From Alphaproteobacteria bacterium (GTDB taxonomy: Bacteria; Pseudomonadota; Alphaproteobacteria; GCA-2731375), in the NCBI GenBank assembly GCA_016776605.1, contig JADHTB010000022.1, positions 714 through 64,713 of the forward strand: 64,000 nt of DNA, given 5' to 3'. A model generated the notes under the pieces. That model saw only the letters and a list, made by a program, of their open reading frames with translations. It did no database searches and had not been told where the DNA came from. The first letter of the stretch is position 1. Every line of letters begins with the position of its first letter. Position numbers and translations under genes: made by a program. Shown piece after piece: positions 11,041-41,498 of this stretch.

Positions 11041-11165
11041 TCCTAGATATTCTGTATGCCTGGATATTCCCCCGGAAGGAAAATGCTCAGATCTTTAGAA
11101 TTAGTGCAATTTTTCCAATCACTTAGAATCGCTTCGCAATTCTCATTAATTCGGAATTGCTCTAG
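11041..11165 (-). mobile_element. MITE family A copy (11079-11165, hairpin module truncated) fused to a family B-like relic (11041-11078)
   Basis: The minus strand reads TAGAGCAATTCCGAATTAATGAGAATTGCGAAGCGATTCTAAGTGATTGGAAAAATTGCACTAATTCTAAAGATCTGAGCATTTTCC, then diverges into GGGGGAATATCCAGG...CAGAATATCTAGG. The first TAG is the flgH stop. Confidence 0.85.
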
Positions 11166-30301: not shown

Positions 30302-31066
30302 ATGTTGGGGCAAGTCCTGCCTGCGGAAATATTCGCGTTCATGCTCGTATTTTCGCGCATCGGCGCCGCTGTGATGCTTTTGCCCGGCATTGGCGAAAAC
30401 TATGTCTTCGCCCGTATCCGCCTTTCTCTGGCGCTGGCCCTTACCCTGGTCATGTACCCCCTGGTCCGGACTGAATTGCCGGTAATGCCGCCCTCTCCCC
30501 TGGGCTTGTTCATCCTGATCGCCGGGGAAGTCATCATCGGTTTATTTATCGGCGGCGCCTCGCGCCTTTTAATCTCCAGCCTGCATGTCGCCGGCGTCGT
30601 CATAGCCTTTCAAAGCAGCTTGGCGTTCGCCCAGACCGTTGATCCCAACCAGGGCACTCAAGGCGCCGTCATGAGCGCCCTGATGACCATCACCGGCGTG
30701 GTGCTGATTTTTGTATCCGGCTTGCACATGTTGTTATTAATCGGCATTCGCGACAGCTATACAATGTTCCCCGCCGGAGACGCGCCCCCGATTGCTGATT
30801 TTGCCCAGTTGGCGGTGTATTTGGCAGCATCTTCATTCAATGTCGGTTTGAAGATGGCCTCGCCTTTTATCGTTTACGGCCTGATTTTTTATATTGGCCT
30901 GGGCATTCTGCAGCGCCTGATGCCCCAGGTGCAGTTGTTTTTCATCGCGGTTCCGGCGCAGATGATGATGGCGTTTCTGGTGATCACGTTGGTGTTTTCG
31001 TCGACGCTGATGGTTTTCCTGCATTATTTCGAGGAAAACGTCATTCTATTCACGGCGGGGCGGTAG
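30302..31066 (+). CDS. fliR: Flagellar export apparatus protein FliR
   Basis: 254 aa polytopic protein. FMLVFSRIGAAVMLLPG..., positioned between fliQ and flhB. Confidence 0.9.
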   Translation: MLGQVLPAEIFAFMLVFSRIGAAVMLLPGIGENYVFARIRLSLALALTLVMYPLVRTELPVMPPSPLGLFILIAGEVIIGLFIGGASRLLISSLHVAGVVIAFQSSLAFAQTVDPNQGTQGAVMSALMTITGVVLIFVSGLHMLLLIGIRDSYTMFPAGDAPPIADFAQLAVYLAASSFNVGLKMASPFIVYGLIFYIGLGILQRLMPQVQLFFIAVPAQMMMAFLVITLVFSSTLMVFLHYFEENVILFTAGR

Positions 31067-31069
31067 CCG

Positions 31070-32173
31070 ATGTCAGATGATCAGGATAAATCCGAAAAGA
31101 CAGAAGAGCCGACCGGGAAGAAGATTGACGACGCCTTCAAGAAAGGCCAGGTGCCGAAAAGCCAGGAAGTAAACCACTGGTTCATGCTGGCCGGCGGTGC
31201 CGCGGTGCTTGGTCTGTTCTCCACCGACATGGCCAATGGCGTGATCGTTAATTTTACCCAGTTTCTGGCCGCGCCGCATACAATCGCGACGGACGCGGGT
31301 CAATTGCTTCAAATGGGGCAAGCTCTGGGCTTCAAGGTCGTGGGCTTTCTTGCCGTGCCATTGGGGGTTCTGGTGGTCGCGGCGCTGGCCGGCAACTTGT
31401 TGCAGCATCGCCTGGTTTTTTCACCCAGCAAGATGGCGCCGGAGCTGTCCAAGCTATCCCCCCTGAAGGGAGCGAAAAAGATATTCGGCTCCAAGGGGGT
31501 GATTGATCTACTCAAGGCAGTCGCGAAAATTATTGTCATAGGCGGGCTGGTGGTCAGCATCGTTTGGCCGGATTTGGCCGATTTGCGCCACATGCCGACC
31601 ATGGAATTGACTGCGATCGGGGGCTTCATCCGGCATGAAGCGCTAAAGATAGCGCTGGCGGTTCTGGCGGTGATGGCGGTGGTGGCGGCCGCCGACAGCT
31701 TTTATGAGCGCTATTCCTGGTTTGAGAACCTGCGTATGAGCGTCAAGGATCTAAAGGATGAAAGTAAACAGGCCGAAGGCGATCCGCACGTCAAGGCGAA
31801 GATCAGACAATTGCGCAGCGAGCGGGCACGCACCCGCATGATGCAGGCGGTGCCCGATGCGGACGTGGTGATCACCAACCCGACCCATTTTGCCGTCGCC
31901 CTGAAATACGATGGCGAGGCCATGGCGGCGCCCAAGGTGGTGGCCATGGGCCAGGACAACGTCGCCCTGCGCATCCGTGAAGTAGCCGAGGAAAACAATG
32001 TCCCCATCGTGGAAAACCCACCCCTTGCCCGTGGCCTGTACGCGGCGGCGGAATTGGACCGGGAAATACCCACTGAATTCTTCAAGGCGGTGGCCGAGGT
32101 TATCGGCTATGTCATGCGCCTGCAGGGTAAAATGGCCCGGCGCTCTGGCGCCACGGGGCGCGGCCGCCCTTGA
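31070..32173 (+). CDS. flhB: Flagellar export switch protein FlhB
   Basis: 367 aa. SEKTEEPTGKKIDDAFKKGQVPKSQE and the NPTH autocleavage site (VVITNPTHFAVALKY). Confidence 0.95.
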   Translation: MSDDQDKSEKTEEPTGKKIDDAFKKGQVPKSQEVNHWFMLAGGAAVLGLFSTDMANGVIVNFTQFLAAPHTIATDAGQLLQMGQALGFKVVGFLAVPLGVLVVAALAGNLLQHRLVFSPSKMAPELSKLSPLKGAKKIFGSKGVIDLLKAVAKIIVIGGLVVSIVWPDLADLRHMPTMELTAIGGFIRHEALKIALAVLAVMAVVAAADSFYERYSWFENLRMSVKDLKDESKQAEGDPHVKAKIRQLRSERARTRMMQAVPDADVVITNPTHFAVALKYDGEAMAAPKVVAMGQDNVALRIREVAEENNVPIVENPPLARGLYAAAELDREIPTEFFKAVAEVIGYVMRLQGKMARRSGATGRGRP

Positions 32174-32385: not shown

Positions 32386-34920
32386 ATGGCGGCAATCACG
32401 GACGATCATCAGGCGGAGCAAAAGGCGATCCTGCCCAGGGTCCGGCCTCTGCGTTTGTTGCGTTGGGTTGCCGCGGTGCTGGCCTTGGTGGCAGGCACCG
32501 CCTGCCTGTTGTTGCTGGTGGTGGAGAACGATCTCCATGATAGCGTCGTTTTGTCCGCCGCGGCGCTCGCCTTGGTGGCCAACGCCGGCCTGGCGTTAGC
32601 GGCCCTGATACCGGATGCCCGCGAGGCTCAGGTCCATCTGCTATCGGAAATGATGGGTCAAAGCGGCGAGGGCCAGATGGTCACGGGCCGCGATGGCCGG
32701 ATGTTATATATGAACAAGGCGGCCGAGGGCTTTTTTGGCGGCGGCGGACGGCGGGTCGATCTGGCCCAGCTTGCCGGCGACGAAAGCGCGGTTGCCCAGA
32801 TCTTGCGTCGTCTGCAGGCGGACGCCCTGTCCGGGGCCAGTAGCCAGGACGAATTTCGCCTGACCCTGCCAAACGGGGAAATCCATGGCCTGGAAGTGCG
32901 GGTCCATCCCATCGGCAATCCCGCCGACAAGGTGGCCTGGTATCTGGCCGAGGCAACGGCGCGGCAGGAATTGCGCGAAGTGTTGCGCAATGAGCAGGCT
33001 TTGTTGACGGATTTTCTGGATAATGCGCCGGTCGGCTTCTATTCGGTGGACCAGGAAGGGCAGTTTATCCTTTCCAATAATACCCTTGCCAATTGGCTGG
33101 GCTATCGGCCGGACGAGTTGGTGGCGGGGCGGGACCTGCACAGCGTGCTGGTCAGCGACAGCGCGACCCTGCTGCCGGGTCAGGGCGCCACGGCGCAGGG
33201 TGAGATGGAAGGCGCGGGTTATTCGAACCGCTATTGGGACGTCACGTTTCAGGCCCGGGACGGAGAGACCTTTCAGGCTCAGGTCACGCAATCGGTGGTC
33301 GGCGATGCCGCCAAGGGTGAGGCGCGGAGCCGCTCGGTGGTGCGCAACCTGTCATTGGAACGCGAACGCCGCAGCGCCCTGCAAACGGCGGAACGCCGCT
33401 TCCAGGAATTTTTTGATCATGCCCCGGTGTCGGTGCTGCTGTTGGACGCCAATGGGGTAATCCAGGAAGCCAATGTTACCTTTACAGCGCTGTTGCCCGA
33501 GGGTGAGACGGCGGCCGAGCGGTCATTGTTCGATTTCGTCAACGAAGATGACCGTGAAGACGTGGCCAGGCAATTGCGGGCGGCCTGGGCCAACGAGCCG
33601 GCCAGCGGGCCGTTGGAGGTTGCCTTGTTCGCCGGCCCGCAGCAACGGCAGATGGAACTTTATGCCTCTGGCATGACCGATGCCAAGGGCGGCGTTTCCG
33701 GCATTTTGCTGCATCTGATTGACAATACCACGCAGCGGAATCTGGAACTGCAATTTGCCCAGTCGCAAAAGATGCAGGCGGTGGGTCAGTTGGCGGGCGG
33801 CGTGGCCCATGATTTCAACAATCTGCTGACCGCCATGATCGGCCATTGCGATTTGTTGTTGTTACGCGCCCGCCCAGGCGACGAAACCTTTCCTGATATC
33901 ATGCAGGTGAAACAAAACGCCAACCGGGCGGCCAATCTGGTGCGTCAGTTGCTGGCGTTTTCCCGGCAGCAGACCTTGCGCCCCAAGGTTCTGTCCTTGA
34001 CCGATGTGCTGGCGGAATTAACCCATCTGGTGCGCCGCCTGATCGGCGAAAATATCGAACTGCGGATCGAACATGGCCGCGACCTCGGCCTGGTCAAGGT
34101 CGATCAGGGACAATTCGAACAGGTCGTGATCAATTTGGCCGTCAACGCCCGTGACGCTATGACCGAGGGCGGCATACTGCACATCAGCACCACCAATGTG
34201 TCGTGGCAGGAGGCGTTTGATTTAGGCAACGGCCTGATCAAACCGGACGAATATATCAAGGTGCAGGTCAAGGACACGGGTAAGGGCATCAAGAAGGAAG
34301 ACATGGGCCGGATCTTCGAGCCCTTTTTTACCACCAAGCTGCCGGGCACCGGGGCGGGTTCGGGCACCGGCCTGGGATTGTCCACGGTGTTCGGTATCGT
34401 TAAACAGACCGGGGGTTATATTTTTCCGGAAAGCGACACCGGCACCGGCACGACGTTCTCGATTTATCTGCCCCGCTATATGCCCACGGTGGACGACGTC
34501 GTCGCCGCCGACCGCGATGAAGAAGAGGACGCGCCGCCCAAGGATCTGACCGGCAAGGGCAAAATTCTGTTGGTGGAGGATGAGGAAGCGGTGCGCATGT
34601 TTGCCGCCCGTGCCCTGCGCAACAAAGGCTATACGGTGTTGGAGGCTGATTGCGGCGAGGCCGCCCTGGCGCAATTCAACGAGCAGAAGGGCGATATTGA
34701 TTTGCTGATCTCTGACGTGGTGATGCCGCAGATGGACGGTCCCACCCTGATCCGTGAGGTGCGCAAGCAGCGCCCCGATCTGAAAGTGATCTTCATCTCC
34801 GGCTATGCCGAGGAAGCGTTCCGCCGCAACCTGGATCCTGACAGCGAATTCGAACTGCTGCCCAAGCCGTTTTCCCTGAAGCAGCTGGCGGGCCGGGTGA
34901 AGGACGTGATCGGCAGTTAG
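32386..34920 (+). CDS. cckA: Hybrid sensor histidine kinase/response regulator, probable CckA orthologue
   Basis: 844 aa. N-terminal TM helices, PAS repeats, H-box GGVAHDFNNLLTAMIGHCDLLL, RQLLAFSRQQTLRPKVL, HATPase region. The receiver has LLISDVVMPQMDGPTL and FISGYAEEAF...LLPKPF, which from memory is close to Caulobacter CckA. Confidence 0.55.
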   Translation: MAAITDDHQAEQKAILPRVRPLRLLRWVAAVLALVAGTACLLLLVVENDLHDSVVLSAAALALVANAGLALAALIPDAREAQVHLLSEMMGQSGEGQMVTGRDGRMLYMNKAAEGFFGGGGRRVDLAQLAGDESAVAQILRRLQADALSGASSQDEFRLTLPNGEIHGLEVRVHPIGNPADKVAWYLAEATARQELREVLRNEQALLTDFLDNAPVGFYSVDQEGQFILSNNTLANWLGYRPDELVAGRDLHSVLVSDSATLLPGQGATAQGEMEGAGYSNRYWDVTFQARDGETFQAQVTQSVVGDAAKGEARSRSVVRNLSLERERRSALQTAERRFQEFFDHAPVSVLLLDANGVIQEANVTFTALLPEGETAAERSLFDFVNEDDREDVARQLRAAWANEPASGPLEVALFAGPQQRQMELYASGMTDAKGGVSGILLHLIDNTTQRNLELQFAQSQKMQAVGQLAGGVAHDFNNLLTAMIGHCDLLLLRARPGDETFPDIMQVKQNANRAANLVRQLLAFSRQQTLRPKVLSLTDVLAELTHLVRRLIGENIELRIEHGRDLGLVKVDQGQFEQVVINLAVNARDAMTEGGILHISTTNVSWQEAFDLGNGLIKPDEYIKVQVKDTGKGIKKEDMGRIFEPFFTTKLPGTGAGSGTGLGLSTVFGIVKQTGGYIFPESDTGTGTTFSIYLPRYMPTVDDVVAADRDEEEDAPPKDLTGKGKILLVEDEEAVRMFAARALRNKGYTVLEADCGEAALAQFNEQKGDIDLLISDVVMPQMDGPTLIREVRKQRPDLKVIFISGYAEEAFRRNLDPDSEFELLPKPFSLKQLAGRVKDVIGS

Positions 34921-35138
34921 AGCAATTCCGAATTAATGAGAATCGCGAAGCTATTCTAGAGCAGTTCCGGGATATTCTGGTCCATTTGATGGCGCCCCTA
35001 AGCCATTCTGGTGCGTTGCGCCGCTTGCCCGATGCACCACATCGCGCTGCGCAACGCGCCTACCCGAATGGCTTAGGGGCGCCATCAAATGGACCAGAAT
35101 ATCTCGGAACTGCTCTAAGTGATTGGAAAAATTGCTCT
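34918..35138 (+). mobile_element. MITE family A module-1 copy interrupted by a family B element (nested insertion)
   Basis: TAGAGCAATTCCGAATTAATGAGAATCGCGAAGCTATTC-TA-[B]-TA-AGTGATTGGAAAAATTGCTCT. The uninterrupted copies read ATTCTAAGTG at this point. The first TAG is the cckA-like stop. Confidence 0.9.
34957..35117. mobile_element. MITE family B, full copy (157-bp core with 50-bp terminal inverted repeats, flanked by a TA duplication)
   Basis: Left arm GAGCAGTTCCGGGATATTCTGGTCCATTTGATGGCGCCCCTAAGCCATTC; the right arm is its reverse complement with one mismatch. The centre carries its own GCGTTGCGC/GCGCAACGC inverted repeat. Confidence 0.9.
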
Positions 35139-35154
35139 GCTTTTAAGAGTCTGG

Positions 35155-35568
35155 TTAAGAGTCTGGGCGCATTTTCTTCGCATGCGCTCTGGCATCGCTG
35201 CCCATGACGATCTGCCGGATGATGTGGGCGATGTACCAGACGGCGTAATAGCCCGAAGCCAAGAGCCCGCCGCCCTTCCCCCCGCCGCCCTTCCCCCCGC
35301 TGCCCGTACCATTGTAGGGGCCGCCGGAATTCGCCCGGTACGGCCCGACCCTGATGTTCTGAAATAAAATGTCGAGGACACCGGCAAAGCGTTTGCGGCA
35401 GGTCAGGCAGTGATAGATGCCCGGCCGCGTGGTTTGGCTGTGAATGGTCCGGATCGCCTCGCGCTCGCCGCAATGGGGGCAAAAGGGACCATCGGACCAA
35501 TGGGCGCAGTCAAGGTTGCCCAGCGCCTCAATCTGATAATGGATGTTGACCTTCGGATCTTCCACCAC
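35155..35568 (-). pseudogene. Remnant of an IS1595-family transposase (zinc-ribbon N-terminus only, internally rearranged, no DDE domain)
   Basis: 137-aa ORF. WSDGPFCPHCGEREAIRTIHSQTTRPGIYHCLTCRKRF is the Zn_Tnp_IS1595 pattern. A GKGGG GKGGG stretch comes from a 15-bp direct repeat. The tail AVWYIAHIIRQIVMG resembles the TAW..H.IR.AM helix. It abuts the nested MITEs. Confidence 0.5.
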
Positions 35569-35652
35569 GGGCGATTCCCCCCGCTTATTGATAAGACCAT
35601 GTGACCGGGCAGGTCAAATACATTGCTGTCCAACGTGATGGTAAATGGACCG

Positions 35653-35667
35653 GAACATTTTTCGAAC
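35653..35667. promoter_or_regulatory. Alphaproteobacterial SOS (LexA) box upstream of recA
   Basis: GAACatttttcGAAC is a perfect GAAC-N7-GAAC, 146 bp upstream of ATG 35813. Confidence 0.75.
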
Positions 35668-35720
35668 ATAGATGAAAATCCGTCATAACATCAACGCCTT
35701 AGTAGCCTATTGCCAGACCG

Positions 35721-35735
35721 GAACAAAAAGGGTAC
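35721..35735. promoter_or_regulatory. Second, imperfect SOS box upstream of recA
   Basis: GAACaaaaaggGTAC has one mismatch and lies 78 bp upstream of the recA ATG. Confidence 0.5.
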
Positions 35736-35812
35736 AGTGATTGGGTTGTTGGATTTCAATCTTTGCCCCCGAATTGAACATGGGGGGCGGTTATGGGATA
35801 AGGGAGCAGGCT

Positions 35813-36958
35813 ATGTCGGTCGGAAATTTACGCTTGGTGGAGCAGAACCAGATGGATAAGGAAAAGGCGTTGGAGCAGGCCTTGGCGCACATTGATCGTG
35901 CCTTTGGCAAGGGTTCGGTGATGAAACTGGGCCAGAATACCACTGCTGTCGAGATTGGCTCGGTTTCCACCGGCTCCCTGGGGCTGGACATCGCGCTGGG
36001 TATTGGCGGTTTACCAAGGGGCCGGGTGGTCGAGGTCTATGGTCCGGAAAGCTCGGGCAAGACCACCTTGACCCTGCATGTGATCGCCGAGGCGCAAAAA
36101 AAGGGTGGCATTTGTGCTTTTGTCGATGCCGAACATGCGCTTGATCCCGCCTATGCCCGCAAGCTGGGCGTGGATGTGGATGAATTGTTGATTTCGCAGC
36201 CTGATACGGGCGAACAGGCCCTGGAAATTGCCGATACTCTGGTCCGTTCGGGGGCCATTGATGTGCTGGTGATCGATTCCGTCGCGGCCCTGACGCCACG
36301 CGCGGAGTTGGAGGGCGAGATGGGCGATACCCATGTGGGCCTGCAGGCCCGCTTGATGAGCCAGGCCTTGCGTAAATTGACCGGTTCCATCTCCAAATCC
36401 GGCTGCATGGTGATCTTCATCAATCAGATCCGCATGAAAATTGGCGTTATGTTTGGCAGCCCCGAAACCACGTCCGGTGGCAATGCCTTGAAATTTTATG
36501 CCTCCGTGCGCCTGGATATCCGCCGTATTGGCGCCTTGAAGGACAAGGAAGAAATTGTTGGCAACCAGACCCGTGTGAAGGTGGTCAAAAACAAGGTGGC
36601 CCCGCCCTTCAAGGTGGTGGAATTTGACATCATGTACGGTCAGGGCATTTCCAAGACCGGCGAGCTGCTGGACCTGGGTGTCAAGGCCGGCGCGGTGGAG
36701 AAATCCGGTTCCTGGTTCTCCTATGGCGATCAGCGGATCGGCCAGGGACGGGAAAATGCCAAACAATTTTTATCGGAACATAGCGATATCGCCGATGAAA
36801 TCGAACGCACGATCCGCGCCAACGCCGGCCTGATCGCCGAAGCCATCATTGGCGAGCCGATCCCATCGGCTGATAACGCTGGTGACAATGACGCAGATAA
36901 TAAGGCAGACAATAGTGCAGACAATGGCCCGAATACCGCGCTGGGCGGCAACCTATAG
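35813..36958 (+). CDS. recA: Recombinase RecA with an extended (A/G)DN-repeat acidic tail
   Basis: ORF 35741..36958. Start [40 protein letters not shown] at 35813 follows AGGGAG. Walker [11 protein letters not shown]-terminus [23 protein letters not shown]. Confidence 0.97.
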
Positions 36959-36976
36959 GGCCATTTTAAATTCATC

Positions 36977-37004
36977 GGGGGCGCGTTCACGGGGACGCGC
37001 CCCC
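36977..37004 (+). terminator. Hairpin after recA
   Basis: GGGGGCGCGttcacggggaCGCGCCCCC followed by ATTGTCCTCATTCATT. Confidence 0.55.
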
Positions 37005-37051
37005 ATTGTCCTCATTCATTATTTCCATAAACAGCGGTCGTCTTGATAGCC

Positions 37052-37231
37052 ATGGCAAAATATCACGTAACCCTGAAATCAAGCCTGTCGGACGGGGATC
37101 TCTATTGGGTCGCCGATGTAACGGCTGAAAACGAAGATGCCGCCATGGTCGCCGCTGAAGCGTTGTTCACGCGGCAAATGAAAAACGCCACGGAATGGTC
37201 GTTTACGGATGCAGATGTGGAACGCCTTTAA
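37052..37231 (+). CDS. Hypothetical 59-aa protein
   Basis: ORF 37043..37231, ATG at 37052 (MAKYHVTLKSS...). No recognisable family. The coding status is uncertain. Confidence 0.35.
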   Translation: MAKYHVTLKSSLSDGDLYWVADVTAENEDAAMVAAEALFTRQMKNATEWSFTDADVERL

Positions 37232-37263
37232 AGCATCGGCCTTTAAAGCCATCGGCCTTTAAT
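37224..37263. repeat. About 2.6 tandem copies of a 15-16-bp unit that contains the TAA stop of the 59-aa ORF
   Basis: GCCTTTAAAGCATCG / GCCTTTAAAGCCATCG / GCCTTTAAT. The stop TAA is at 37229-37231 in copy 1. Confidence 0.85.
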
Positions 37264-37316
37264 ACAATCCGTCTGCCCTGAGCCATCGGTGGTTTGCCCA
37301 GCCAGGCAATCAATTT

Positions 37317-37380
37317 CTAGAGCAATTCCGAATTAATGAAAATCGCGACGCGATTCTAAGTGATTGGAAAAATTGCTCTA
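37317..37380 (+). mobile_element. MITE family A, module 1 only (64 bp)
   Basis: CTAGAGCAATTCCGAATTAATGAAAATCGCGACGCGATTCTAAGTGATTGGAAAAATTGCTCTA with TA at both ends. Confidence 0.9.
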
Positions 37381-37434
37381 ATACTCCGCCTAAATGCAGT
37401 GTGTCGCCTAAAGGTACGGCTTAAAGGCATCGCC

Positions 37435-37470
37435 TATAACTATGGTTTAAATTTGGTAACCATAGTTATA
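37435..37470. promoter_or_regulatory. Perfect 13-bp inverted repeat inside a ~180-bp extremely AT-rich leader
   Basis: TATAACTATGGTTtaaatttggtAACCATAGTTATA, 145 bp upstream of the first pseudo-receiver gene. Candidate operator. Confidence 0.45.
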
Positions 37471-37614
37471 AAAGCTAAGTAATTATTACTAAAATAAAAT
37501 TAATCAGTATTGATAGCGTTTATTTAAATAATTAATACCAGAATTAATCCAATTCACTATTGGTGCGGTTGTCCGGGTCGGGAAACACGGCAAAACCATA
37601 ACTGACGGTGAACT

Positions 37615-38544
37615 ATGCGTAGAGCAGAATACGAGAACGCGTCTATATTACATTATGATGCCCGGCGACGAGTCGGCAAACGCACCTGTGCGGCCCTGGG
37701 GGAACTGGGTTTTCGCCGCATAGAGAACGTGGATAATGCCGACACGCTGGCCAAATTAATGCGCTCACGGCAGTTTGATCTGGCGGTTTATGGCAACGAT
37801 GCCGCGGCGGCCGGATCATTGGAATCGATTCGGCAGACGCGCCACTACGACAAGTCCTCGGATCCCTATACGCCGATGATCCTGATGACCTGGAATGCCG
37901 CCTCGGAAGTGGTGCGCAAAGCCTTGAATACGGGTACCGACCAGTTGTTGTTGTGGCCGTTTTCAACCCGGCAAATTGGCGCCCGTGTGGAGGCCTTGAT
38001 TACGGCACGCAAGCCTTTCATCGAGACCGAGGATTATCTGGGACCGGAACGCCGCGACCCAACGGCACGCCGCCTGTACTCAAAATCGATCGAGGTGCCC
38101 AATGCCTTGCGGGCCAAGGTCCAACGGCGTCCCGATTTGGCGCCCGGCATTGAGGCCATTCAGGCGGCTAGGGCCAGCTTGGAAAGGATTAAGATGGGAA
38201 ATATTGCCAACCGCATTTGCGCGGCGGCAAAAATGTTGCGCCGACATGGCGAAAATATTGGTTTTCTCCAGGATCTGGCGGTAGACGAATTGGCCTCCAT
38301 TCAAAAATCACTCGGTGTCATCCGAAAGGCCTTAGAGGTATTGCAGCAAGATCATAAACAGTCATTCTGCGACGCAGTGGACCGGCTGGCTATACAATTG
38401 AGCCATTCGGCGCCGGTTTTGGATTTGAAGGGCTTGGCTTTGTTGGAGCAGGCGGCCATGGCCCTGCGGGTGGCAATCGACATGGAAGCGACACCGACGA
38501 AAAATACCGCCCCTGCCACGGCTGGGACATCTACCGTAAGTTAA
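37615..38544 (+). CDS. Pseudo-receiver (CheY-like, non-phosphorylatable) protein with a GPERR arginine-rich motif and an unknown helical C-terminal domain; paralogue 1
   Basis: 309 aa. The receiver-like N-terminus ends beta3 as FDLAVYG (Gly where CheY has D57) and has LLLWPF (Trp where CheY has K109). Then ARKPFIETEDYLGPERRDPTARR, VPNALRAKV and a helical C-terminus (LALLEQAAMALRVA). Confidence 0.65.
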   Translation: MRRAEYENASILHYDARRRVGKRTCAALGELGFRRIENVDNADTLAKLMRSRQFDLAVYGNDAAAAGSLESIRQTRHYDKSSDPYTPMILMTWNAASEVVRKALNTGTDQLLLWPFSTRQIGARVEALITARKPFIETEDYLGPERRDPTARRLYSKSIEVPNALRAKVQRRPDLAPGIEAIQAARASLERIKMGNIANRICAAAKMLRRHGENIGFLQDLAVDELASIQKSLGVIRKALEVLQQDHKQSFCDAVDRLAIQLSHSAPVLDLKGLALLEQAAMALRVAIDMEATPTKNTAPATAGTSTVS

Positions 38545-38562
38545 TCCGGCGGTCAGACCGGC

Positions 38563-38597
38563 GAGAGCAGTTCCAGAATATCCCGGAACTGCTCTAG
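38563..38597. repeat. Minimal MITE family B copy (termini only, 35-bp hairpin)
   Basis: GAGAGCAGTTCCagaatatcccGGAACTGCTCTAG, 19 bp after the paralogue 1 stop. Confidence 0.8.
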
Positions 38598-38765
38598 TTC
38601 TTCGTTTCCCACCGAGGGCTGGCTGTGTGATGACCCCTATCCTAACTGATATTTAAGTATTTCCGGGCAACCTGTCTCAACCCTGGACGTCCAAATAATG
38701 ATGTTTCGGGGCAGGTTTTTGGTATCTGGGATGTCATCCCGAGCTAGGTTGTGGGTTATTAATCA

Positions 38766-39722
38766 ATGGAAAAAGAACCGTTCGTCAATTCGACGGTCCT
38801 GCTTTTTGACACCAAGCTGCATGTGCGGAAGCAAACCCGCTCGATATTGAATATCATCGGCTTTTGGAAGATCGAAGAATGCGAAAGTGTCAGTGATGTT
38901 CGGCTGGCTCTCAAGAGTCGGCGGTATGATTTAGCGATTTTTGCGGTACTCGACCGTGATGATGGCGTATCTGCGTTGGTTAATGATCTGCGGCGCTTCC
39001 GTTGTGGCGACGATCCTTTCCTGCCCGTCATCCTGTCCAGTTGGGACGCGCGTCTGGGGCTGGTCCGTACGATCATTGATGCCGGCGCCGATGATTTTCT
39101 GGCGCATCCATTTTCCACCACCGATTTGAGTGAACGGATCAATGCCCTGGTGACCAATCGCAAACCCTTTATCGTCACCGAAGAGTATTTTGGTCCCGAC
39201 CGCCGCACCGCCGAGGCCCGCGGCAATGATGCCGGTTCCGTAATGGTGCCGAATGCTTTATTGGCCCGGGTCGAGGGAAAGCCGGAATTGGGACCCAATC
39301 CGGATTTTATCGAAGCCAGCCTGAGCCAGTTGCGCCGGGTCAAAATACGCAACATTGCCCGCCGTATCTGGGCCATTGCGGATGTTTTGTATAAGGCTTA
39401 TGGCGATCCGTCCCTGCCGGATTGGATCGAGCGTGAATTGCTGCAAATACTCAAGTCGGGACGCAAGTTTAACGAAATTATTCCGCCGCGCGAGATCATG
39501 CAGCTGGGTAGTCTATGTGATACGGTGATCCAAACGGCCAACCGGCTCCGGGTTGAAAAAGTCCGTGAAACAGATCTTGAATTACTGGAACAAAGTGCGC
39601 TGGCGCTTCGGGTCGCCTCCCAGCTTGGCGGTGATAGCACCGATGCCGCCGCCGAAATTTCCTCCGCCCTTGCCGCTATTCGTGACAAACACAACGATTT
39701 GATCAAATCAGTCATCGGCTGA
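38766..39722 (+). CDS. Pseudo-receiver protein with a GPDRR motif and a helical C-terminal domain; paralogue 2
   Basis: 318 aa, colinear with 37615..38544. YDLAIFA (Ala at the D57 position), FLAHPF (His at the K109 position), NRKPFIVTEEYFGPDRRTAEAR, VPNALLARV, LELLEQSALALRVA. Confidence 0.65.
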   Translation: MEKEPFVNSTVLLFDTKLHVRKQTRSILNIIGFWKIEECESVSDVRLALKSRRYDLAIFAVLDRDDGVSALVNDLRRFRCGDDPFLPVILSSWDARLGLVRTIIDAGADDFLAHPFSTTDLSERINALVTNRKPFIVTEEYFGPDRRTAEARGNDAGSVMVPNALLARVEGKPELGPNPDFIEASLSQLRRVKIRNIARRIWAIADVLYKAYGDPSLPDWIERELLQILKSGRKFNEIIPPREIMQLGSLCDTVIQTANRLRVEKVRETDLELLEQSALALRVASQLGGDSTDAAAEISSALAAIRDKHNDLIKSVIG

Positions 39723-39744
39723 ACAACCTCGTGAGAACTCACAT

Positions 39745-39849
39745 CTAGAGCATTTTCATTCTGAAAATGCTCAGATCTTTAGAATGAGAGCAATTTTTCC
39801 AATCACTTAGAATCGCTTCGCGATTCTCATTAATTCGGAATTGCTCTAG
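39745..39849 (-). mobile_element. MITE family A, full 105-bp copy in inverted orientation
   Basis: Its reverse complement differs at 3 positions from 32193-32297. The terminal CTA at 39846-39848 is the TAG stop of the acyl-CoA ligase. Confidence 0.9.
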
Positions 39850-41498
39850 GAAGCCGCCGTCTCGCGGTCGCGCAGGGCAAAACGTTGAACCTTGCCCGTG
39901 GCGGTCCGGGGCAGGCCGTCGATGAATTCCACCGCACGGGGATATTTGTAGGGCGCGATGGTCGCCTTCACATGATCCTGCAACGCCTGGACCAGATCGG
40001 GCCCCGCGTGGCCGGGGTCTTGCAGCACGACAAAGGCTTTGACGATCTGGCCGCGCCGGGCATCGGGGCAGCCGATCACCACGCAATCGGCAACGCCCGG
40101 AAATTCCAGCAAAACCGCCTCGATTTCCGGGCCGGAAATATTGTACCCGGCGGAAACAATCAAATCGTCAGTGCGTGACTGATACCAGAAATAGCCGTCT
40201 TCATCCCGTAAATAACTATCGCCGGTCAAATTCCAACCCTGCAACACATAGCTGGCCTGGCGCTCCGGGCTGGCCATATAGCGGCAGCCCGTGGGGCCGC
40301 GTATGGCCAGGCGTCCGATTACGCCGGGGGGCGCCGTGTTGCCGCTCTCATCCAGCACCGTTGCTTCATATCCGGGAACCGTCTGGCCGGTCGCGCCGGG
40401 ACGGATATCGCCGTCCCGGCTGGCAATGAAGTTGTGCAGCGTTTCGGTCGCACCAATGCCGTCATAAATGGTTAAACCTGTCGCCCTGTGCCACGCCTCC
40501 CAGGTCGCCTTTGGCAGTACCTCCCCGGCCGAATTGCATAGCCGCAGGCTGGGCAGGGCGGTCTCGCGCAGCAGTGGTGTCAAGGTACGGTACATGGTGG
40601 GGGCGGTGAACAGCACCGTCACCTTATGTTTGTTGATCGCGGTGATTAGGCTTTCCGGCGTATAGCCTTCCAACAACAGCACCGAGGCACCCGCATACAT
40701 GGGAAACAGCAACAAACCACCCAGGCCATAAGTAAAGGCCAGGGGCGGGGTGCCGGTAAATATATCGTCGGCCCTGGGCCGTATGGTATGCCCGCACGAG
40801 GTCAGGCAGACGGCCATCACATCGCGGTGGAAATGCATGCAGGCCTTGGGCTGGCCCGTAGTGCCGGAGGTAAAGGCGATGATGCAGACATCGTCGGCGG
40901 CAGTATCCACATTGTCGAATGTGTCGGGTTTGCCGGCCATGCGGGCTTCCAGGCCATCCGCTCCCGGGTCATGGAAACAGACGATATCGCGCAGATATTT
41001 GGAATTTGCGCGCGCCTGGTTCAACTCACCCGCCAGCTTGCTGTCGCATAAGGCGACGCTGATCCTGGCGAAGTCGGCCATATAGGACAACTCCCGGGCC
41101 CGCAACAGGGGCATGGAGGCGACGGCGACGGCGCCCACCTTCATCGCCGCGAACCAGCAGGCGGCATACATGGGATTGTTGCCCGAGCGTAACAGCACCC
41201 GGTTGCCAGGCTGGATGCCCAGGTCTTCGGTCAGCACATGGGCGATACGGTTGGCCTGGGCCAACAGCGCGCCATAGCTCCAGGCTACTGCATTATCGCG
41301 CAGGGCCACGCGGTCCGGATGCGCGGCGGCCTTTTTGTCCAACAGTTCCGTGGCGCAGTTGATCCGGTCCGCCAGGGCGGCCAGTTCGGGCAGACGGGTA
41401 TAATCGATCTCGGCCCAGGTTGACTTCGGGGGCAGGTTTTCCGCCGCGAAGTGATCGACATGGGCGGTCTCGCCACCCGGGGCCCATGGTTCAGACAT
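39846..41498 (-). CDS. AMP-dependent acyl-CoA ligase (aryl/2-aminobenzoate-CoA ligase-like)
   Basis: 550 aa. IIAFTSGTTGQPKACMH P-loop, YDGIGATE, SGDSYLRDEDGYFWYQSRTDDLI, TATGKVQRF. Confidence 0.85.
   Translation of the reverse strand: MSEPWAPGGETAHVDHFAAENLPPKSTWAEIDYTRLPELAALADRINCATELLDKKAAAHPDRVALRDNAVAWSYGALLAQANRIAHVLTEDLGIQPGNRVLLRSGNNPMYAACWFAAMKVGAVAVASMPLLRARELSYMADFARISVALCDSKLAGELNQARANSKYLRDIVCFHDPGADGLEARMAGKPDTFDNVDTAADDVCIIAFTSGTTGQPKACMHFHRDVMAVCLTSCGHTIRPRADDIFTGTPPLAFTYGLGGLLLFPMYAGASVLLLEGYTPESLITAINKHKVTVLFTAPTMYRTLTPLLRETALPSLRLCNSAGEVLPKATWEAWHRATGLTIYDGIGATETLHNFIASRDGDIRPGATGQTVPGYEATVLDESGNTAPPGVIGRLAIRGPTGCRYMASPERQASYVLQGWNLTGDSYLRDEDGYFWYQSRTDDLIVSAGYNISGPEIEAVLLEFPGVADCVVIGCPDARRGQIVKAFVVLQDPGHAGPDLVQALQDHVKATIAPYKYPRAVEFIDGLPRTATGKVQRFALRDRETAAS

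Follow-up and report, generated by a model that had tools for sequence, protein, structure and literature searches.

In the Cle proteins, cyclic di-GMP (c-di-GMP) is bound by an arginine-rich extension (ARR), a tandem [Y/F]xGP[D/E][R/K]R motif that comes right after the receiver domain (Nesper et al. 2017, PMC5677366). In the CleD peptide SKPREWVEAVAYVGPDRRRFNSADYKGPRKRKADAS, c-di-GMP is contacted from DRR and [R/K]RxxD, 11 residues apart, and the D-R-R residues form hydrogen bonds with the ligand (Hee et al. 2020, PMC7382256). Binding by full-length CleD is lost on R156A substitution in the first repeat, whereas R169A in the second weakens it ≈5-fold. A Cle protein is defined by c-di-GMP binding at 2:1, with nanomolar affinity and through the ARR, and by docking on the FliM N-terminus or the flagellar switch; an arginine on receiver helix alpha4 (CleD R113) is required for function. 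Another precedent is Rec1 of Caulobacter ShkA, a pseudo-receiver that binds c-di-GMP on its alpha4-beta5-alpha5 face; a short charged linker latch, DDR, docks on the same face and releases the downstream domain, which has been termed "domain liberation" (Dubey et al., bioRxiv 10.1101/675454). Here, we describe two tandem genes, A and B, in a 64,000-nucleotide (nt) stretch of DNA from an Alphaproteobacteria bacterium (assembly GCA_016776605.1, contig JADHTB010000022.1, positions 714 to 64,713), hereafter the window. Sequence comparisons indicate that their products are members of a large and unstudied family, a sister group of the Cle-type proteins, that combines a single ARR repeat with a new helical output domain.

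The A and B proteins (Table 1) aligned colinearly over their full length by BLASTP, with 34% identity and an E-value of 6e-53, so that their paralogy is not due to chance. A previous reading of the DNA without database searches (the sequence-only reading) had described tandem paralogues of 309 and 318 residues, and this description was correct, including the exact open reading frame (ORF) coordinates. In the closest syntenic relative, L001, A is 89% and B is 97% identical; B is also 97% identical to family member P0001. Orthologues of the A type are confined to near relatives (89% in L001-L003, ≈60% in L040 and P0090), unlike B-type sequences, which are widespread. The ratio of nonsynonymous to synonymous substitution rates (dN/dS) against L001 was 0.26 for A and 0.09 for B, which shows that both are real, functional genes under purifying selection. 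The view that they are decaying pseudogenes, or annotation artefacts made by the activity of a miniature inverted-repeat transposable element (MITE), could draw on the MITE copies that flank and split the pair and on the sub-threshold Pfam score of A described below. However, apart from the dN/dS values, full-length orthologues are present in many assemblies, the AlphaFold2 models are confident, and the MITE copies are recent insertions at non-coding positions. We give this view virtually no credence, as it is ruled out by the conservation data.

The B protein was modelled with AlphaFold2 from a 71-sequence alignment, yielding a predicted local distance difference test score (pLDDT) of 87.9 and a predicted template modelling score of 0.79. 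Residues 10-130 of the model form a classical (beta-alpha)5 receiver, which Foldseek aligned with the receivers of CheY and KdpE at target-normalised template modelling (TM) scores of 0.84-0.89; receiver domains were the sole Foldseek matches of the full-length model. The Pfam family Response_reg (PF00072) scored 36 bits with B and 20.9 bits with A, above and below the cut-off of 30.2 bits, respectively, and an NCBIfam scan of the two gave weak, receiver-level matches. A CheY-like fold, which the sequence-only reading had assigned to both proteins, is thus upheld by profile and predicted structure for B and by a sub-threshold profile match for A.

Active-site residues were mapped through an alignment with E. 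coli CheY and 186 relatives. At the position of CheY Asp57, the phospho-acceptor, A has Gly (FDLAVYG) and B has Ala (YDLAIFA), and at that of Lys109 A has Trp (LLLWPF) and B has His (FLAHPF), confirming the substitutions that had been read from the two sequences. Thr87 corresponds to Thr in A and Ser in B. The acidic pair D12/D13 is represented by a single acidic residue (Asp15); its second position is A or T in the two proteins and is acidic in 0 of 188 family members. The Tyr106 position is L, I, V or F. Because the acceptor Asp and the Lys are lost, with no Asp57 or Lys109 in register, the receivers of A and B would have no phosphorylation switch. As the sequence-only reading had expected, they are pseudo-receivers, not phosphorylatable in the standard way.

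The most conserved segment of the protein is the linker that directly follows helix alpha5. In B it runs R132-K-P-F-I-V-T-E-E-Y-F-G-P-D-R-R147, and its counterpart in A ends IETEDYLGPERR; the block shared by the two is RKPF-x-x-T-x-x-Y-x-GP(D/E)RR, then VPN. All the blocks picked out earlier from the letters (RKPFIETEDYLGPERR and RKPFIVTEEYFGPDRR, VPNAL and LLEQ-A-ALRVA) were found in A and B. Among 188 full-length members, the linker is conserved at 84-100% per position, with R132 in 99%, K133 in 90%, F135 in 98%, T138 in 93%, Y141 in 99%, G143 in 100%, P144 in 99%, D145 in 87%, R146 in 99% and R147 in 97%; further on, V161, P162 and N163 are present in 96%, 99% and 100%. The conservation is equal whether or not Asp57 and Lys109 are retained (63 members keep both, 67 neither). 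According to the B model, the linker is a short beta-hairpin (135-137/142-144); behind it come 13 spacer residues, V161-P-N163, one short helix and then four long ones.

The linker contains the first-repeat motif of the ARR, [Y/F]xGP[D/E][R/K]R, directly after alpha5: A reads YLGPERR there, B YFGPDRR. The spacer behind the DRR is rich in arginine, which is the commonest residue at +4 and +5, and it is enriched in a compact RxxD at +4/+5, found in 64 of 283 members (23%) as against 28 ± 4 in shuffled sequences. B carries this element as R152-G-N-D155, while A has R-R without the Asp.

Short proteins of 175-179 residues with a tandem ARR were also caught in the genome scan, in L039, L042, L095 and L099. 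They consist of a receiver, KPF[VI]R-x3-Y-x-GPDRR, a second repeat resembling Y-x-G-P-E-R-R (degenerate in L095 and L099) and a short tail; a fifth gene of this Cle type lies in L083, ≈3 kb from a B-type family member. The full-length hidden Markov model (HMM) of the family aligned without gaps to the proteins of L042 and L099 from HMM position 5 to 150-152, through GPDRR, with 112.5 and 108.3 bits, respectively. The same HMM gave 48.6 bits with E. coli CheY, where the alignment ends at alpha5, and 22.8 bits with the receiver of the CckA-like kinase in the window. With a receiver-only HMM, L042 (78 bits) and L099 (73 bits) were the best non-family matches; the Cle-type protein of L083 scored 54, E. 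coli CheY 50.7, alphaproteobacterial CheY proteins 43-44 and the degenerate Cle-type proteins of L039 and L095 32-42 bits. The scores of both HMMs show that the receiver and first ARR repeat of the family are homologous to those of the Cle-type proteins, beyond a mere likeness of motif.

The Cle-type genes (L039:568-1092, L039:1202-1720, L083:7314-7856 and those of L042, L095 and L099) belong to uncultured Alphaproteobacteria. Some of their second repeats are degenerate, such as YTAAERR and FDGEDRR, and L039 has two of the genes side by side, near a canonical CheY of 128 residues (L039:4373-4759).

Beyond the linker, A and B have a predicted four-helix bundle. When the C-terminal half of A was modelled alone (pLDDT 80.4), the same four helices were predicted as in the B model (52-83, 92-116, 119-137 and 144-165 in fragment numbering). 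The bundle had no match in Pfam or NCBIfam up to an E-value of 10, and a Pfam scan of 71 family members gave Response_reg and otherwise scattered chance matches at E ≥ 0.006. A profile search of PDB sequences returned designed helical proteins and weak, non-significant natural matches; over the linker motif, the sole natural PDB match was the CleD peptide 6sft, itself weak (E about 1). Foldseek found nothing below an E-value of 0.028 for the C-terminal half; its list comprised designed proteins, PsbQ, the FAT domain and CheA-P1/HPt (E ≥ 0.28), all of them generic four-helix bundles. Across the family, the bundle is conserved at hydrophobic positions only. The helical domain that the sequence-only reading was unable to assign is thus fairly described as unassignable by these searches.

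A bundle position where the third long helix begins (B residue 246) is His in 93 of 188 members (49%), within the motif G-T-x-[YF]-x-H-[VI]-x-x-L-C; the His is retained in A, whereas B has Gln. A largely conserved Cys follows five residues later in 74 of the 93 His-bearing members. In A, the His lies in DHKQSFC, at 38350-38367 of the window (residues ≈246-251). The His and Asp57 tend to occur together (odds ratio 4.1; p 5e-6 by Fisher test, uncorrected for phylogeny), and an HPt-like, metal or redox role is possible. One explanation would be that the ancestor was a fused receiver-HPt-like phosphorelay with a phosphorylatable bundle His, of which A and B are decayed remnants, and this would fit both the co-occurrence and the CheA P1 and HPt domains on the Foldseek list (3kyi_A, 1i5n_B, 1yvi_B and 7c1i_A). 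However, these matches have E ≥ 0.28 and TM ≤ 0.5 (3kyi_A: E 0.28, TM 0.35/0.48), and designed bundles fit equally well or better. An HPt domain is recognized by matching the Pfam Hpt profile (PF01627) and by a solvent-exposed His, within HxxKG, on helix two of the bundle; the profile matched 0 of 71 members, even at an E-value of 1, and the family His lies near the start of the third helix rather than in the middle of the second, with no HxxKG. The correlation with Asp57 may merely mirror clade structure. We therefore consider a phosphorelay origin improbable.

The family itself is large. A word-indexed search found 85 relatives, and an exhaustive profile search based on the C-terminal half yielded at least 1077 representatives of 50%-identity clusters at E ≤ 1e-3, 830 of them at E ≤ 1e-10. 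The degenerate DNA pattern for KPF[VI]-x4-Y-x-GP[DE]RR occurred in at least 119 stretches of species-representative genomes, and the C-terminal HMM also matched the gene in 115 of the 119 pattern matches listed. Nearly all members are ≈310 residues long, with the C-terminal module starting near residue 128; longer ones have an extra canonical N-terminal receiver (P0180, P0183) or an unannotated extension. Tandem pairs are rare, being found among the matches listed in L004, L018, L035, L040 and the window clade. The hosts are almost all Alphaproteobacteria, including Magnetospirillum, Paramagnetospirillum, Terasakiella, Sneathiella, Caenispirillum, Telmatospirillum, Ferrovibrio, Nisaea, Skermanella, Oceanicaulis, Marinicauda, Woodsholea and many metagenome-assembled genomes (MAGs). 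Members also turned up in MAGs assigned to Solirubrobacterales, Flavobacteriales and Candidatus Sulfotelmatobacter (L007, L031, L061), either through contamination of the bins or through rare transfer beyond the Alphaproteobacteria. Literature searches found no characterised member and no paper on any of them. Public labels are generic ("response regulator", "hypothetical protein") or, at JGI, "DNA-binding response OmpR family regulator"; the latter is unsupported, as Pfam scans show no DNA-binding domain.

Throughout the family, the Asp57 position is D in 47%, A in 25% and E in 11% of the 188 members, and the Lys109 position is K in 43%. The family has dispensed repeatedly with phosphorylation chemistry while leaving the linker unchanged, with A and B in the degenerate half. 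Relatives that are complete, having Asp57, Lys109 and His246, include those of Terasakiella pusilla (WP_028879530.1) and Ferrovibrio terrae (WP_341913241.1).

The explanation that we favor, tentatively and at somewhat less than even odds, is that A and B are phosphorylation-independent adaptors of Cle descent in which the Arg-rich linker serves as the binding site of a guanine nucleotide, probably c-di-GMP. In the scheme that we infer as to ligand identity, linker docking, a dimeric site and the role of the bundle, the linker would sit against the receiver and form a site for a guanine-based second messenger, c-di-GMP being the best candidate, so that ligand binding would replace phosphorylation as the input. 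The ligand would then alter the presentation of the bundle to a protein partner, or dimerisation; control of the bundle in this manner is modelled on ShkA, where a pseudo-receiver and linker latch provide the precedent. ShkA was not among the best 60 of 117 PDB sequence matches at E ≤ 1. Since half of the Cle-type site is present per chain, the complete site, for an intercalated dimer of c-di-GMP, might be composed across a homodimer or, in the window clade, an A/B heterodimer; alternatively, a single chain might bind monomeric c-di-GMP with the help of receiver residues. Points in favor of the c-di-GMP reading are the degenerate active site, the extreme conservation of the linker irrespective of Asp57 and Lys109, the D-R-R shared with the CleD contacts, the R156A result, the HMM scores of the Cle-type proteins, the 6sft match, the RxxD enrichment, the hemerythrin-fused member next to a tandem-ARR gene (below) and the Cle-type gene near a B-type member in L083. 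Linker docking is suggested by a linker pLDDT of 87-95 in the full-length model of B compared with 58-65 in the model of A without the receiver, although this comparison is confounded by the use of different paralogues and the shallower alignment for A.

Several observations weigh against this explanation. A second [YF]xGPx[RK]R repeat was found in 0 of 169 members and [RK]RxxD in 3 of 169, the Cle-spaced copy being missing. The alpha4 arginine of Cle proteins (AR[DN]xG), mapped through the Cle-type homologues rather than CleD, aligns with B residue 104, which is I, V, L, M or A in the family and Arg in 0 of 188 members. In minimal CleD peptides, removal of the second half or of R169 abolishes binding (PMC7382256), and c-di-GMP binding can therefore not simply be transferred from Cle to the family. 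Moreover, the Cle ARR is disordered without ligand and folds on binding (PMC7382256), whereas the linker is predicted to be folded, and its conservation could be purely structural. The roughly one third of members that keep Asp57, Lys109 and Thr87 may be ordinary phosphorylation-driven regulators. No gene for a GGDEF, EAL or PilZ protein was seen in the window, and no conserved neighbour emerged from 125 loci, where the best gene cluster, found in 16, is housekeeping (tpiA, secG, pyrG). The comparison with Cle made by the sequence-only reading thus holds for the position, the published core motif and, as the gapless HMM alignment shows, homology of the receiver and first repeat, but it does not extend to the second repeat or the helix alpha4 arginine. 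Its proposal of nucleotide-second-messenger effectors gains from the homology of the receiver and first repeat and loses by the same two absences. In its sequence, the family fails on the defining features of Cle proteins, but it may still work like Cle.

The main rival of c-di-GMP binding is that the family consists of ordinary phosphorylation-controlled regulators in which the linker is a structural coupler between receiver and bundle, and that A and B are ligand-free degenerate copies acting, for instance, as decoys, constitutive partners or scaffolds for the targets of phosphorylatable relatives. The retention of Asp57 and Lys109 is correlated (63 members have both), P0180 and P0183 carry a canonical receiver in addition, the linker is predicted with high confidence to be folded, unlike the Cle ARR with its ligand-induced folding, and the second ARR half and alpha4 arginine are missing, all of which speak for this rival. 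On the other hand, in none of the members is the second position of D12/D13 acidic, and the linker is better conserved than every active-site residue of the receiver, to an equal degree where Asp57 has been lost. The conserved residues are also exactly the D-R-R that contacts c-di-GMP, and the Tyr, of the homologous Cle motif. On balance, we regard this rival as somewhat unlikely.

Another alternative is that A and B are true Cle equivalents, which dock on FliM at the flagellar switch when loaded with c-di-GMP. Apart from the homology to Cle-type receivers and the first ARR repeat, this would fit the position of the pair in the window clade, a few kb from fliQ, fliR and flhB, and a weak FliL-like gene two genes away in L006. 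The gene order in this clade is flgC-fliE-fliQ-fliR-flhB, a CckA-like hybrid kinase, recA, an ORF of 59-62 codons, A, B and a convergent benzoate-CoA-ligase-like gene. In the window, ORFs 30302-31066 and 31070-32173 correspond to fliR and flhB by size, order and the Pfam matches of L001/L002 to Bac_export_1 and Bac_export_2, and the kinase gene directly behind them (32386-34920, + strand, 844 residues) matches the Brucella CckA model over its full length at 782 bits, below the curated cut-off of 1000 bits. However, cckA, recA and the small ORF separate the flagellar genes from the pair, and the synteny is lost in L004, L005 and L006 and in at least 119 genome loci: the tandem pair in L004 and the singletons in L005 (Ferrovibrio) and L006 have unrelated neighbourhoods. 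The flagellar linkage of A and B is thus clade-specific synteny, and it is the fliR-flhB-kinase arrangement, not the pair, that accounts for the flagellar genes nearby. The motility link suggested by the sequence-only reading is overstated, resting on the fliR-flhB-cckA-recA-x-A-B order of one clade; more distant members sit elsewhere. In addition, the Tyr106 position is L, I, V or F, the tandem ARR and alpha4 arginine required for Cle function are absent, and a 150-residue bundle is present that Cle proteins do not have. Docking on FliM in the manner of Cle therefore seems very unlikely. A PilZ receptor was also considered and rejected: A, B and the 71 family members scanned gave no Pfam PilZ match, the window ORFs contain no pair of RxxxR and [D/N]xSxxG, and the predicted fold is alpha/beta plus helical in place of a beta-barrel.

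A single gene association was informative. In Magnetospirillum sp. SS-4, L030:1902-3281 encodes a 459-residue member with an N-terminal hemerythrin domain, 31 nt upstream of L030:3312-4871. In the product of the latter (520 residues), a degenerate receiver is combined with a tandem ARR (FHGPDRR...YKGPFRR-ADD) and a hemerythrin domain in an internal position; the same gene pair occurs in L084 (Paramagnetospirillum marisnigri). The two may constitute an O2- or iron-linked pair of c-di-GMP effectors. A bolder version of the c-di-GMP reading would hold that the family is a new class of effectors for c-di-GMP, or another guanine nucleotide, from Cle stock, in which a single repeat and a compact RxxD form a latch on the pseudo-receiver and the ligand, possibly at a homo- or A/B heterodimer site where the tandem ARR is rebuilt in trans, frees the bundle for contact with a cellular partner, with Magnetospirillum-type hemerythrin fusions connecting it to O2 or iron sensing. 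We consider it unlikely that all of this applies.

The coordinates of the features in and around A and B are given in Table 1.

Table 1. Features of the A/B locus, in positions of the window.
Feature	Position	Strand	Description
Small ORF between recA and A	37043-37231	+	62 codons from TTG; 59 residues as called in relatives
MITE-like copy upstream of A	37314-37385		Recent insertion, absent from L001
AT-rich leader of A	37400-37614	+	Conserved with L001; perfect 13-bp palindrome 37435-37447 / 37458-37470
Gene A	37615-38544	+	ORF, 309 residues; degenerate receiver, half-ARR linker and four-helix bundle; faster-evolving paralogue
A receiver	37642-38004	+	Residues ≈10-130; Asp57 = Gly60, Lys109 = Trp114, Thr87 retained; Pfam Response_reg 20.9 bits
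A linker module	38008-38109	+	Residues 132-165: RKPFIETEDYLGPERR-DPTARR-...-VPNAL; single ARR-type repeat plus another Arg pair, no RxxD
A four-helix bundle	38149-38490	+	Residues ≈179-292; semi-conserved family His in DHKQSFCD
MITE-derived hairpin between A and B	38564-38597		Recent insertion, absent from L001
Gene B	38766-39722	+	ORF, 318 residues; architecture as gene A; conservative, widespread paralogue type
B receiver	38793-39155	+	Residues ≈10-130; Asp57 = Ala60, Lys109 = His114, Thr87 = Ser; Pfam 36 bits; pLDDT 89-97
B linker module	39159-39260	+	Residues 132-165: RKPFIVTEEYFGPDRR-TAEA-RGND-...-VPNAL; one ARR-type repeat, then compact RxxD
B four-helix bundle	39300-39626	+	Predicted helices 179-210, 217-238, 241-263, 268-287 (AlphaFold2); then low-confidence tail helix
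MITE-like copy between B and convergent acyl-CoA ligase gene	39745-39852		Recent insertion; L001 has 15 nt here

The MITE-like family has TAGAGCAATTCC... termini and the core 21-mer AGTGATTGGAAAAATTGCTCT, with five copies of the core in the window compared with 0 expected; pieces of the family lie at 11103, 32235, 34918-35138, 37314-37385, 38564-38597 and 39745-39852. The arms at 37314-37385 and 39781-39852 are 72-nt inverted sequences that are 93% complementary. Since all three pieces by A and B are precise insertions missing from L001, the element has recently been active in the lineage of the window, and the pieces are incidental to the function of A and B. The sequence-only reading had framed the pair by MITE copies; the flanking copies and the splitting hairpin are indeed there, but as recent insertions with no functional meaning. 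It had also described the interval between recA and A as a MITE and an AT-rich leader. Both are present, but the interval additionally contains the conserved 62-codon ORF, which is nearly identical in L001-L003 and had no NCBIfam match. The palindrome in the leader reads TATAACTATGGTT-N10-AACCATAGTTATA; additional direct repeats of CTGTAACTATGGCC stand immediately upstream in L001. The leader is possibly an operator or promoter region. The fold z-score of the leader was -2.1. No Rfam family or riboswitch was found in 36900-39900, and a promoter and terminator scan gave no excess over shuffled sequence.

The interval from the CckA-like gene to recA (34920-35740) holds nested MITE copies with a 56-nt inverted pair (34957-35012 / 35062-35117), C-rich 15-nt direct repeats (35260-35316) and a minus-strand ORF (35155-35568) with a CPHCG...CLTCRKRF zinc-ribbon; its counterpart in L001 has weak IS1595-transposase and HNH matches. 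These contents look like mobile-element remnants.

If the half-ARR does bind c-di-GMP, a large, widely distributed alphaproteobacterial group would form another branch of the effectors built on an ARR, one that has a new output domain, and the known repertoire of c-di-GMP receptors would grow. The family would then reveal the history of the tandem ARR, whether a single repeat was duplicated or loss took place, with the Cle-type tandem-ARR proteins as a potential outgroup, and it would provide a natural test of whether one repeat takes a monomeric ligand or needs dimerisation. Cultured, tractable genera are available among the hosts (Magnetospirillum, Terasakiella, Oceanicaulis and Ferrovibrio). 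If there is no ligand, the family would still be a clean example of repeated loss of receiver chemistry, in about half of the members, around an invariant linker and an uncharacterised bundle. In either case, the family analysis corrects the "DNA-binding OmpR family" label in some databases.

Judged by their sequences, A and B are neither ordinary response regulators nor Cle proteins. With canonical response regulators (PF00072), they share the receiver fold, Thr87, Pro110 and the GAD motif, but they lack the acceptor Asp and Lys109 and have one acidic residue after beta1; they differ from OmpR-type regulators in that Pfam scans show no DNA-binding domain. HPt and CheA-P1 domains resemble the C-terminal domain in being antiparallel up-down four-helix bundles joined to a receiver, with a His that covaries with Asp57 in the family; here the His is on another helix, without HxxKG and, in the 71 members scanned, without a Pfam Hpt match. 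ShkA Rec1 has in common with the family an alphaproteobacterial receiver fold and an incomplete acidic pocket, but it lies inside a hybrid kinase, the latch there is DDR as opposed to GPDRR, and its downstream domain is a second receiver. The Cle proteins are the closest of these systems, with the same alphaproteobacterial distribution, a CheY-type receiver, function without phosphorylation, which would apply to A and B as well, and the K-P...[Y/F]-x-G-P-[D/E]-R-R segment directly after alpha5. In contrast to Cle, the family has one repeat only, with no Cle-spaced [R/K]RxxD, a hydrophobic residue at the alpha4 arginine position, and a linker that is predicted to be folded where the Cle ARR is disordered. 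In place of the short variable Cle tail, it has V-P-N and a four-helix bundle of ≈110-150 residues.

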